Under the pieces are notes generated by a model. The model was not told the origin of the DNA, did no database searches, and worked only from the letters and a program-made list of their open reading frames with translations. This document shows positions 12,444-13,355 of a stretch of 64,000 nucleotides of DNA, piece by piece. Position 1 is the stretch's first letter; each line of letters opens with the position of its first letter. This DNA is from an uncultured delta proteobacterium (lineage in GTDB: Bacteria > Myxococcota > UBA727 > VGSZ01): positions 208,616 through 272,615 of the forward strand of contig CAVZJB010000009.1 of assembly GCA_963775425.1 (NCBI GenBank), in the 5' to 3' direction. Both the position numbers and the translations under genes were made by a program.

Positions 12444-13355
12444 TCACCGCTCGACGAGGGGCAGCCGGCGCTGGCGGCGCTCATCGTCGATGCGCTTGTG
12501 CGCGATGGTGCAGTAGTCGCCGTCGCGCTCAACCCCCACCCAGTGACGGTCGAGGCGGTCGGAGGCGAGCAAGGTCGAACCGGACCCGGCGAAGCAGTCG
12601 AGGATGCGGTCCCCCCGGTTCGTCCCCGCGAGGACGATCCGCTCCATCACGCGCAGCGGCTTCTGCGACGGGTGCTTGCCGTGCACCCTCTCGCGCGCCG
12701 GCGTCACCGGGATCTCCCAGAAGTTGCGCATCTGCTTGCCGCCGTTGAGCGCCTTCATCGAGTCGTAGTTGAAGGTCCAGTTCTTCGCCTTCTTGTTGGT
12801 GTTGTTGCACAGCCACAGGATCTGCTCCGTGCTCTCGGTGAGCATGCGACAGGTGATGTTGGGCTGGGCGTTCGGCTTCGCCCAGATGATGCTGTTCACG
12901 ATGCGCAGATCCAGGCGAGCGGCAATGGCACCAATCGTATAGATATTGTGATAGCTCCCGAAGATGAAGATGTTGCCGTTCTCCTTGGTGGTGCGGCACA
13001 CCTCCTTGAGCCATGCGGCGGTGAACTCCTCGTACTCGTCGTGGGTAAACCGATCCCACTCGCTGTCGATGGTCACGTGCGAGGAGAACGCCCACGACAG
13101 ACCCTTTCTGTCGCGAGCAATATTGTATGGTGGATCGGTGATACATGCATGGAAATACCGGTTGCTCCATTGCGACAAGGTCTCCAGGCAATTGCCATGG
13201 TAGAGCTGGTTGGGCAGCGGACTGACCTTGTCGCTCCCTCGCTTCGGCAGCGTCGAGATCGATCCCGTCGAAAGCGGACGGGCCACGGGCTCGTACGGCC
13301 GCTCGAGATCGAGCGGCTCCACTTCGCCGGCCTGGAACTTCGCCATCGCCACCAT
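12444..13355 (-). CDS. beta-class DNA (N6-adenine or N4-cytosine) methyltransferase, orphan
   Basis: Motif IV CITDPPYNI precedes motif I DCFAGSGSTLLAS (beta-class order). HPSQKP motif present. Local GC is visibly lower (about 55%) than the flanks. Confidence 0.85.
   Translation of the reverse strand: MVAMAKFQAGEVEPLDLERPYEPVARPLSTGSISTLPKRGSDKVSPLPNQLYHGNCLETLSQWSNRYFHACITDPPYNIARDRKGLSWAFSSHVTIDSEWDRFTHDEYEEFTAAWLKEVCRTTKENGNIFIFGSYHNIYTIGAIAARLDLRIVNSIIWAKPNAQPNITCRMLTESTEQILWLCNNTNKKAKNWTFNYDSMKALNGGKQMRNFWEIPVTPARERVHGKHPSQKPLRVMERIVLAGTNRGDRILDCFAGSGSTLLASDRLDRHWVGVERDGDYCTIAHKRIDDERRQRRLPLVER

Follow-up and report, generated by a model that had tools for sequence, protein, structure and literature searches.

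A solitary, fmt-linked beta-class DNA methyltransferase of uncultured Myxococcota, probably long resident and related to the modification partner of MutH/Sau3AI-type nucleases

Introduction

Orphan DNA methyltransferases that are kept throughout a lineage are understood in few cases, Dam, CcrM and CamA among them, where they govern replication timing, DNA repair and gene expression. The present work concerns a candidate for that short list: a solitary methyltransferase gene, hereafter MT, at positions 12444..13355 (minus strand) of a 64,000-nucleotide stretch from an uncultured delta proteobacterium assigned to the Myxococcota (GenBank assembly GCA_963775425.1, contig CAVZJB010000009.1, 208,616 to 272,615), the whole of which is called the window below. 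An earlier note, made from the letters alone, had read MT as a horizontally acquired CcrM/M.HinfI-like enzyme. Lineage-conserved orphan adenine methyltransferases derived from restriction-modification (R-M) systems are a known kind of gene; the present family and its distribution in the Myxococcota are undescribed in the searchable literature, where a search on conserved Myxococcota or Poribacteria DNA methylases found nothing relevant.

Results

MT is an intact open reading frame (ORF) of 303 amino acids. Its ATG start is preceded, with a spacer of 7 nucleotides, by a GGAGG ribosome-binding site read from the sequence, which lies in an upstream intergenic region of 162 nt (13356..13517, minus strand); a promoter and terminator consensus scan around the gene returned zero promoter-like sites (sigma-70-type included) and zero terminator-like sites. 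At its other end the TGA stop (TCA on the plus strand, 12444-12446) abuts the TAG stop (12441-12443) of a convergent K+ channel gene, the two stops filling 12441..12446 with the zero spacing at 12443/12444 that the earlier note had seen. The protein matches Pfam PF01555 (N6_N4_Mtase) over residues 69-286 with E=1.8e-47 (162.6 bits, against a cut-off of 26.7), and the PADLOC Type II methyltransferase model PDLC03371 scores 253 bits on it. Motif IV, the DPPY of the catalytic adenine pocket (residues 74-77; 13125..13136, minus strand), comes before motif I, the FAGSGS of the S-adenosylmethionine-binding loop (residues 255-260; 12576..12593, minus strand). This is the beta-class order of N6-adenine and N4-cytosine (N6A/N4C) enzymes, as had been noticed earlier, and the Pfam score and the fold agree with it: the AlphaFold model (pTM 0.82) finds CcrM (6pbd) as its best PDB match (Foldseek E=5e-22), and the top PDB fold matches are all beta-class (CcrM, M.BceJIV, M.MboIIA, a rotifer N4C methyltransferase and M.RsrI).

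The active-site residues of CcrM are retained. DPPY is invariant in alignment A1 of 31 family members and aligns to D31-P32-P33-Y34 of CcrM, which bind the flipped adenine; F255, G257 and G259 of motif I are invariant as well. K160, E177, R223 and K232 align to K118, E135, R179 and K193 of CcrM (catalytic or adenine-pocket residues), and CcrM Y93/H94 are likewise kept. The presence of DPPY, and not SPPY/F, together with the kept adenine-N7 contact K193 (here K232) would favour N6-adenine over N4-cytosine methylation. The alignment has long invariant runs (e.g., NSI.WAKPNAQPNITCRM.TESTEQ), and all columns from K160 to Q178 are invariant in it; they form the segment KPNAQPNITCRMLTESTEQ (residues 160-178; 12822..12878, minus strand), the equivalent of CcrM Loop-45 and a putative DNA-recognition loop, near-invariant across the family. 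This segment has low pLDDT in the model, whose low-confidence parts (88-91, 160-175 and 226-229) fall at the positions of the three DNA-contacting loops of CcrM, which is consistent with loops that become ordered upon DNA contact. Myxococcota members have in addition an N-terminal extension of about 50 amino acids with a conserved P-Y-E-P-V-A, and a basic C-terminal tail, RRQRRLP.

On the plus strand, a YscJ/FliF-like and a FliG-like gene (9368..11427, identified by Pfam) and then the K+ channel gene (11424..12443; Pfam Ion_trans_2, TrkA_N and TrkA_C) run towards MT. Upstream of MT, on its own minus strand, stand a gene for an LMF1-like (lipase maturation factor) membrane protein (13518..14957; Pfam LMF1 2.3e-42, LMF1_C 8.6e-38), one for a Sir2-family deacetylase (14947..15740, start approximate; Pfam SIR2 1.1e-26) and fmt, encoding methionyl-tRNA formyltransferase (15735..16700, start approximate; Pfam Formyl_trans_N and Formyl_trans_C). 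MT was earlier described as wedged between convergent native genes; it does lie between a plus-strand and a minus-strand gene, but the LMF1-like gene is upstream of it on the same strand, and both flanks are variable genes, as the relatives show. The absence of an adjacent restriction endonuclease, recombinase or phage gene is borne out by Pfam and PADLOC on the neighbours: PADLOC on the seven genes around MT gave no defence or nuclease match, no tRNA was found in the window, and neither mobility genes (integrase, transposase, phage) nor a repeat boundary were found near MT.

A database search at E<=1e-10 gave 1282 homologs of MT; the top 120 are 61-86% identical to it and 226-397 amino acids long. 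With MT as query, 365 loci were found in the GTDB species genomes, each species being represented by one genome. The best 32 of these belong to metagenome-assembled genomes (MAGs) labelled by their submitters Myxococcota, Myxococcales or Deltaproteobacteria, after which come many Poribacteria, some Chloroflexota and one Armatimonadia bin. Orthologs 58-89% identical to MT are found in at least 32 species-level Myxococcota MAGs, which span 32-72% GC, and no relative above 40% identity was found among 50,697 phage and 72,556 plasmid records.

The position of the gene is conserved along with its sequence. At least 14 loci have either fmt or fmt-Sir2 immediately upstream of MT and co-oriented with it (the count for fmt linkage being at least 14-19), with the order fmt-Sir2-MT in L001, L005, L009, L083, L084 and L088, and the convergent FliG-like/YscJ-like pair lies downstream in 11-15 loci from genomes of 32-72% GC. 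Locus L083 reads aminotransferase, fmt, Sir2, MT, a 5-bp gap and the convergent FliG-like gene, with neither LMF1 nor K+ channel. The K+ channel gene is absent between MT and the FliG-like gene in L007, L008 and L015 too, and an LMF1 homolog was not found in loci L001-L031 or L083, adjoining MT only in L087, the closest full-length relative. Judged by this gene order, the LMF1-like and K+ channel genes are variable, lineage-specific insertions and MT is the resident, contrary to what a recent insertion would look like: when synteny in relatives was inspected, as the earlier note had proposed, MT was present at the orthologous locus. The LMF1-like protein is itself a curiosity, being a bacterial homolog of the eukaryotic lipase maturation factor placed between Sir2 and MT only here and in L087. 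In low-GC relatives the fmt stop overlaps the MT start by 7-38 nt (L012 9039..10891, L014 1514..3359, L018 4380..6322), which suggests translational coupling of the two genes.

Pairwise identity of MT correlates with that of fmt (Pearson 0.81), the FliG-like protein (0.84) and the YscJ-like protein (0.88), and MT is the better conserved of MT and fmt in all 171 of 171 pairs (mean identity 71% vs 49%). As for the marks of a recent genomic islet, mobility hallmarks and absence from the locus in relatives are both missing here, and an unusual composition is partly present. The marks of a lineage-conserved orphan methyltransferase, no linked nuclease and a fixed context across the lineage, are found in loci that were gathered with MT as query.

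Composition was the reason for which MT had been taken as foreign, and computing windowed GC and codon adaptation bore out the AT-richness itself (62.4% vs 71.5% GC). The window has 71.5% GC and MT about 62.4-62.6%, with 200-nt windows in its core falling to 55.5-58.5%. Compared with 30 confident genes of the window, MT has a GC of 0.626 (reference 0.713 +/- 0.027), a GC at third codon positions (GC3) of 0.874 (0.947 +/- 0.017) and a codon adaptation index of 0.578 (0.762 +/- 0.048). MT is a compositional outlier in the window, outside genome norms. However, its amino-acid sequence written in native codon usage would have an expected GC of 0.653, against the native mean of 0.713, and this expectation is already low because F, Y, M, I, N or K make up 25% of its residues vs 15% in native genes. 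Most of the GC deficit, about two thirds, is therefore conserved amino-acid composition rich in AT-type codons.

The remaining deficit of 0.027 comes from 38 AT-ending codons clustered in two patches, codons 61-90 (13086..13175, minus strand; GC3 0.53-0.60), which include the string quoted by the earlier note, and codons 136-150 (12906..12950, minus strand; GC3 0.53), with codons 151-255 at a GC3 of about 1.0. Both patches are private to the window allele and a few others (the lower-GC alleles L002 and L017). The region of the first patch has a GC3 of about 0.9-1.0 in the high-GC orthologs L001, L005, L009, L007 and L087, and MT of L087 as a whole has a GC3 of 0.937; L001, L005, L009 and L087 lack both patches. 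A search for a donor of both patches found no ortholog unusually similar there at the nucleotide level; they may reflect recombination with a lower-GC allele (mosaicism). Across the family loci the GC3 of MT follows the host, from 0.19 in a 32% GC genome to 0.96, and where the host is GC-rich, the total GC of MT invariably falls 5-10 points short of that of the neighbours, with GC3 equal or higher. Since high-GC orthologs have the same GC deficit with a normal GC3, low GC is a family trait and not a mark of recent arrival. The step from low GC to horizontal acquisition hence fails on the expected GC of 0.653, on the deficit in high-GC orthologs, on the synteny with fmt and on co-divergence (r=0.81-0.88).

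That MT was called CcrM/M.HinfI-like is understandable, as CcrM is its closest solved relative by sequence (1.6e-49; BLASTP identity to the CcrM catalytic domain 36.7%, 176 bits) and the CcrM equivalog has the best NCBIfam score for MT. That score is nevertheless 218.9 bits vs a cut-off of 830, with only positions 4-253 of the 350 of the model matched, and MT ends 14 residues past the catalytic domain, lacking the C-terminal DNA-binding segment of about 80 residues. In CcrM, loss of the C-terminal domain abolishes DNA binding and activity (PMC6787082, PMC7672430). The residues fully conserved in the strand-separating group are N120, P123, N124, F125, G127, R129 and N132 of Loop-45 and L42, R44, W57 and D58 of Loop-2B (PMC7672430). 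MT keeps five of these 11 (N162, P165, N166, W100 and D101), whereas L42, R44, F125, G127, R129 and N132 have become G85, S87, I167, C169, M171 and E174, so that the arginine which reads the G of GANTC (R44) is a serine and R129 a methionine. By its domains and loops, MT is not a CcrM/M.HinfI-type enzyme, and the earlier label stands only for the closeness to the solved structure. A set of DpnIIB-family proteins, retrieved with a DpnA-like sequence as query and including P0187 (NCBI 'Modification methylase DpnIIB'), is 36-43% identical to MT (176-201 bits), and a profile of the MT family scores its members at 223-242 bits and CcrM at 214. The window family thus looks like a third beta-class subfamily, with DpnA-type architecture.

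What the family did before it became solitary may be read from its relatives in other phyla. In about 27 loci of Poribacteria type, the gene after MT, in the same orientation, codes for a nuclease of about 205-228 amino acids that matches Pfam MutH (2.9e-8), and the same gene pair is found in contigs of other origin (L085 and L089); nuclease remnants are present in L049, L057 and L070. In one Poribacteria bin (L055 5265..6938) a 557-amino-acid ORF consists of an N-terminal Rho_N/SAP-like segment, MT and a MutH/Sau3AI-type nuclease, the last matching Pfam MutH at 2.9e-13. The nearest solved relatives of the partner nuclease are Sau3AI (4.3e-8) and MutH (6.4e-4), by NCBIfam it falls closest to the Sau3AI and MutH families, and its homologs are named by their sources 'MutH/Sau3AI family endonuclease'. 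An alignment with E. coli MutH shows K48-G49-W50, E56, the catalytic pair E77/K79, E91, R184 and K186 retained in the nuclease family, with K48, E77, K79, E91, R184 and K186 invariant. K48, E91, R184 and the 184-190 loop of MutH are implicated in reading GATC (PMC10940147). An assignment of the methyl-sensor Tyr212 of MutH in the partner nuclease was dropped, the C-terminal alignment being ambiguous.

A nuclease 68% identical to this partner lies, in a Phycisphaerae bin, directly downstream of a DpnM/Dam-type methylase (PDB 2dpm 4.6e-51, Dam 8.5e-40), DpnM and Dam both being enzymes for GATC. The cassette to which it belongs (L090 2890..5415; also L091 and L092, all Phycisphaerae) comprises a helix-turn-helix controller-like (C-protein-like) gene, the DpnM/Dam-type methylase, the MutH/Sau3AI-family nuclease and a second, unrelated methylase; in L090 it is followed by a Y1 transposase fragment, and its organisation is DpnII-like with another nuclease family.

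The methyltransferases of the paired loci (L035-L080, L085 and L089) are 51-59% identical to MT, and their putative recognition loops are essentially identical to its own. They are linked or fused to a nuclease in unrelated neighbourhoods, whereas those of the Myxococcota have no nuclease and a fixed, fmt-linked position. An adjacent cognate restriction endonuclease, which defines a Type II R-M system, is present for the Poribacteria members and absent at the window locus; tblastn (E<=10) against the 64-kb window and against about 35 Myxococcota loci gave no homolog of the partner nuclease, and none of the best 120 nuclease homologs has a Myxococcota name, among database proteins of which only about a quarter are named. 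The earlier suggestion of a solitary methylase, regulatory or left over from a lost R-M system, comes close: MT is solitary in the region, and elsewhere its family is the modification partner of a MutH/Sau3AI-type nuclease. Because the partner nuclease is related to Sau3AI and MutH, a close homolog of it stands beside a DpnM/Dam-type methylase, and the putative recognition loops of MT are essentially identical to those of its nuclease-linked Poribacteria relatives, GATC, methylated at N6 of adenine, is the target we favour for the family, with some reserve; GANTC would be an improbable target, and other motifs take what remains.

Word statistics did not separate the candidate targets. With a maximal-order Markov expectation, the observed/expected ratio (O/E) of the palindrome GATC is 0.90 in the window and 0.82-0.90 in the Myxococcota loci, a weak deviation that is uninformative for the target, and GANTC, at 0.89-0.99, has no notable bias. 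The avoidance of GATC in the Poribacteria loci (O/E 0.55-0.66) was rejected as a discriminator of the target, many other palindromes being avoided there too. Asp in the window's confident genes is written GAT 30-34% of the time before C, where this makes GATC, and 2-3% of the time otherwise (odds ratio (OR) 14-29, p<1e-23); for the remaining NAT|C contexts the share is 2-21%, with AAT|C lowest and CAT|C highest in a second gene set. This bias is weaker elsewhere (OR 2.9-3.9 in relatives and 1.4-4 in three control replicons, of Streptomyces, Ralstonia and Thermus), and as a sign of selection for GATC it was rejected, given that the high-GC controls show it too. GATC sites cluster significantly at a single place in the window (49026-49325, with 12 sites in 300 nt); a regulatory role was rejected for this cluster, which is a coding tandem repeat of 129 nt with Asp-Pro dipeptides. 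TGNCA is under-represented in the window (33 observed vs 124 expected under the maximal-order Markov model, O/E 0.27), probably as a codon-phase artefact of a genome with a GC3 of about 95%.

The GATC cluster belongs to an ORF of 1964 amino acids (48289..54183, minus strand) made up of coding tandem repeats of 129, 105 and 399 nt, especially at 48837..51816; its product is Asp-rich, with calcium-binding-like DPLDPCDP motifs. Elsewhere in the window, an 801-amino-acid bacterial homolog of the eukaryotic Major Vault Protein is encoded at 30798..33203 (plus strand; Pfam MVP_shoulder 1.4e-15, Vault_3 2.7e-8), and homologs 58-61% identical to it adjoin a FliG-like gene in four metagenome contigs (L099-L102). 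The gene at 56389..58035 (minus strand) has the 'FtsH ternary system domain X7' (PF20005, 1.9e-13), a component of a predicted conflict system, next to unannotated genes at 55074..56342 and 54278..55021, and a short tandem repeat at about 7630..8080 reads (LLAFLPSC)n in the ORF translations of one strand and (KKARRQEG)n in those of the opposite strand.

Discussion

The results suggest, with a probability that we put at about 0.72, that MT is a long-resident, vertically inherited solitary methylase of an uncultured Myxococcota clade, derived from an R-M system. The family would have its origin in a Type II system, as the methylating partner of a MutH/Sau3AI-type nuclease. This pairing, and even a fusion, survives in Poribacteria, Phycisphaerae-like and other genomes, whilst the Myxococcota lineage would have kept the methylase alone. 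If active, MT would flip the target adenine into the DPPY pocket and methylate it at N6, with two near-invariant loops, KGLSWAFSSHVT and KPNAQPNITCRMLTESTEQ, reading the site. The outcome would be genome-wide G(m6A)TC marking by an analogue of Dam from another enzyme class, whose expression probably accompanies that of the fmt operon or follows directly on it. After the loss of the nuclease, the enzyme could have been kept for a host function, for which hemimethylation signalling at replication, gene regulation, strand marking or the timing of repair, and protection from the GATC-cutting systems of invaders are all candidates. Its low GC would follow for the most part from a constrained protein in which F, Y, M, I, N and K are frequent, two private patches of AT-ending codons accounting for the rest.

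Recent horizontal acquisition, in which a foreign gene of lower GC, either an orphan or what remains of a recently lost R-M system, landed between two native genes, appears very improbable to us. It would explain why MT is an outlier in GC, GC3 and adaptation index and why its AT-codon patches resemble the lower-GC alleles L002 and L017, and the occurrence of the family in several phyla does mean that it moved between lineages at some time. However, amino-acid composition explains two thirds of the GC deficit, which high-GC orthologs of normal GC3 share, and the place of the gene with respect to fmt and the FliG-like and YscJ-like genes is kept across genomes of 32-72% GC with a divergence that tracks the neighbours. 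The locus has no tRNA, integrase, transposase or repeat boundary, the phage and plasmid records gave no close relative, and what relatives lack is the LMF1-like and K+ channel genes, not MT. A partial allelic replacement, by recombination with a relative, is possible, at most.

Nor does a GANTC cell-cycle regulator of the CcrM/M.HinfI type, reading its site by strand separation, seem likely. The missing C-terminal domain, the replacement of six of the 11 group-defining loop residues, an equivalog score far under the cut-off, the lack of a notable GANTC bias and a partner nuclease that elsewhere is of the GATC type (MutH/Sau3AI) and not of the HinfI type count for more than the fact that CcrM is the best solved match by sequence and fold, with the best NCBIfam score and conserved catalytic residues. 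A working two-gene system whose nuclease sits elsewhere in the genome, for restriction or for MutH-like nicking in methyl-directed mismatch repair, is again quite unlikely. In E. coli, dam and mutH are unlinked, mutH lying among unrelated genes, and a MutH/Sau3AI-type nuclease is the natural partner of the family; on the other hand, the R and M genes of Type II systems are seldom unlinked, and neither the window, nor the roughly 35 Myxococcota loci, nor the names of the best 120 nuclease homologs pointed to such a partner in the Myxococcota.

A number of results weigh against long residence as a solitary GATC methylase, or against parts of it. Sequence coverage is 64 kb of the window genome and at most 21 kb per relative, which leaves room for an unlinked nuclease. 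All MT loci were found with MT as query, and MT is at most a candidate core gene of the clade. When metagenome contigs were scanned with the FliG-like gene as anchor, MT lay within the 6-kb flank in only one of about five syntenic loci; such loci were few, and the spacer between MT and the FliG-like gene can exceed 6 kb (L097 resembles the long-spacer arrangement of L005, and four matches are the FliG-like gene in another context). As to the target, the partner nuclease also has a marginal match to Pfam MvaI_BcnI, and MutH-fold nucleases with other specificities exist (MvaI, BcnI); MT is overall about equally distant from DpnIIB and from CcrM, and neither the GATC frequencies nor the GAT|C codon context speak for GATC. 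Lastly, the GC3 and adaptation index of this allele are true outliers in the window, and no donor was found for its two patches of AT-ending codons.

A stronger version of the favoured reading, in which MT is a clade-defining and possibly essential writer of G(m6A)TC on a DpnA-like beta-class scaffold, a functional counterpart of Dam and CcrM domesticated from a MutH/Sau3AI-type R-M system, co-expressed with fmt and under stronger purifying selection than fmt, is tentative and should be treated with doubt. As a gene MT is of an ordinary kind, and what is said here of its target and role is prediction. What the family would do is fill, in uncultured Myxococcota, the place of a lineage-wide orphan methyltransferase, with its Type II source still visible in other phyla. 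It also holds a caution for annotation: a GC deficit of 9 points and poor codon adaptation suggested a foreign gene, when most of the deficit came from the constrained protein and the seemingly native neighbours were the newcomers. If the stronger version held, MT would represent a second, independent route from a selfish module of GATC methylase and MutH-like nuclease to housekeeping methylation, and the origin of Dam/MutH-type strand marking would be open to comparative testing.

Among known systems, CcrM of Caulobacter crescentus (PDB 6PBD) and M.HinfI share with MT the beta-class order, the DPPY pocket and the catalytic fold, and CcrM, likewise solitary and lineage-conserved, is a functional analogue. 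They differ from it in the C-terminal domain, in the base-reading residues of Loop-2B and Loop-45, in an insert of five residues in Loop-6E that MT lacks, in taxa, and in the GATC type of the nuclease with which the MT family is paired elsewhere. The alpha-class enzymes Dam (E. coli) and DpnM would make the same G(m6A)TC product if the GATC prediction holds, and Dam is also solitary, lineage-conserved and evolutionarily tied to a MutH-type nuclease, though we know of no MutH or SeqA partner for the Myxococcota lineage of MT. Their motif order is circularly permuted and their family is PF02086, not PF01555, which leaves only the methyltransferase fold in common. Closest in architecture is the DpnA (M2.DpnII, DpnIIB) family, short proteins of about 255-270 amino acids without a C-terminal domain, with the same Loop-6E length and with a Loop-45 signature common to MT and absent from CcrM, N-[IL]-[ST]-C-R-x-[FL]-T-x-S-T-E (C-R..T.STE). 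These are GATC methylases of Firmicutes R-M cassettes, DpnA being known to prefer single-stranded DNA, and the target of MT is probably the same. Even so, Loop-2B of MT (KGLSWAFSSHVT) is different from that of the DpnIIB family and two residues longer, and whereas DpnIIB members belong to cassettes of the DpnII type, MT is solitary, chromosomal and next to fmt.

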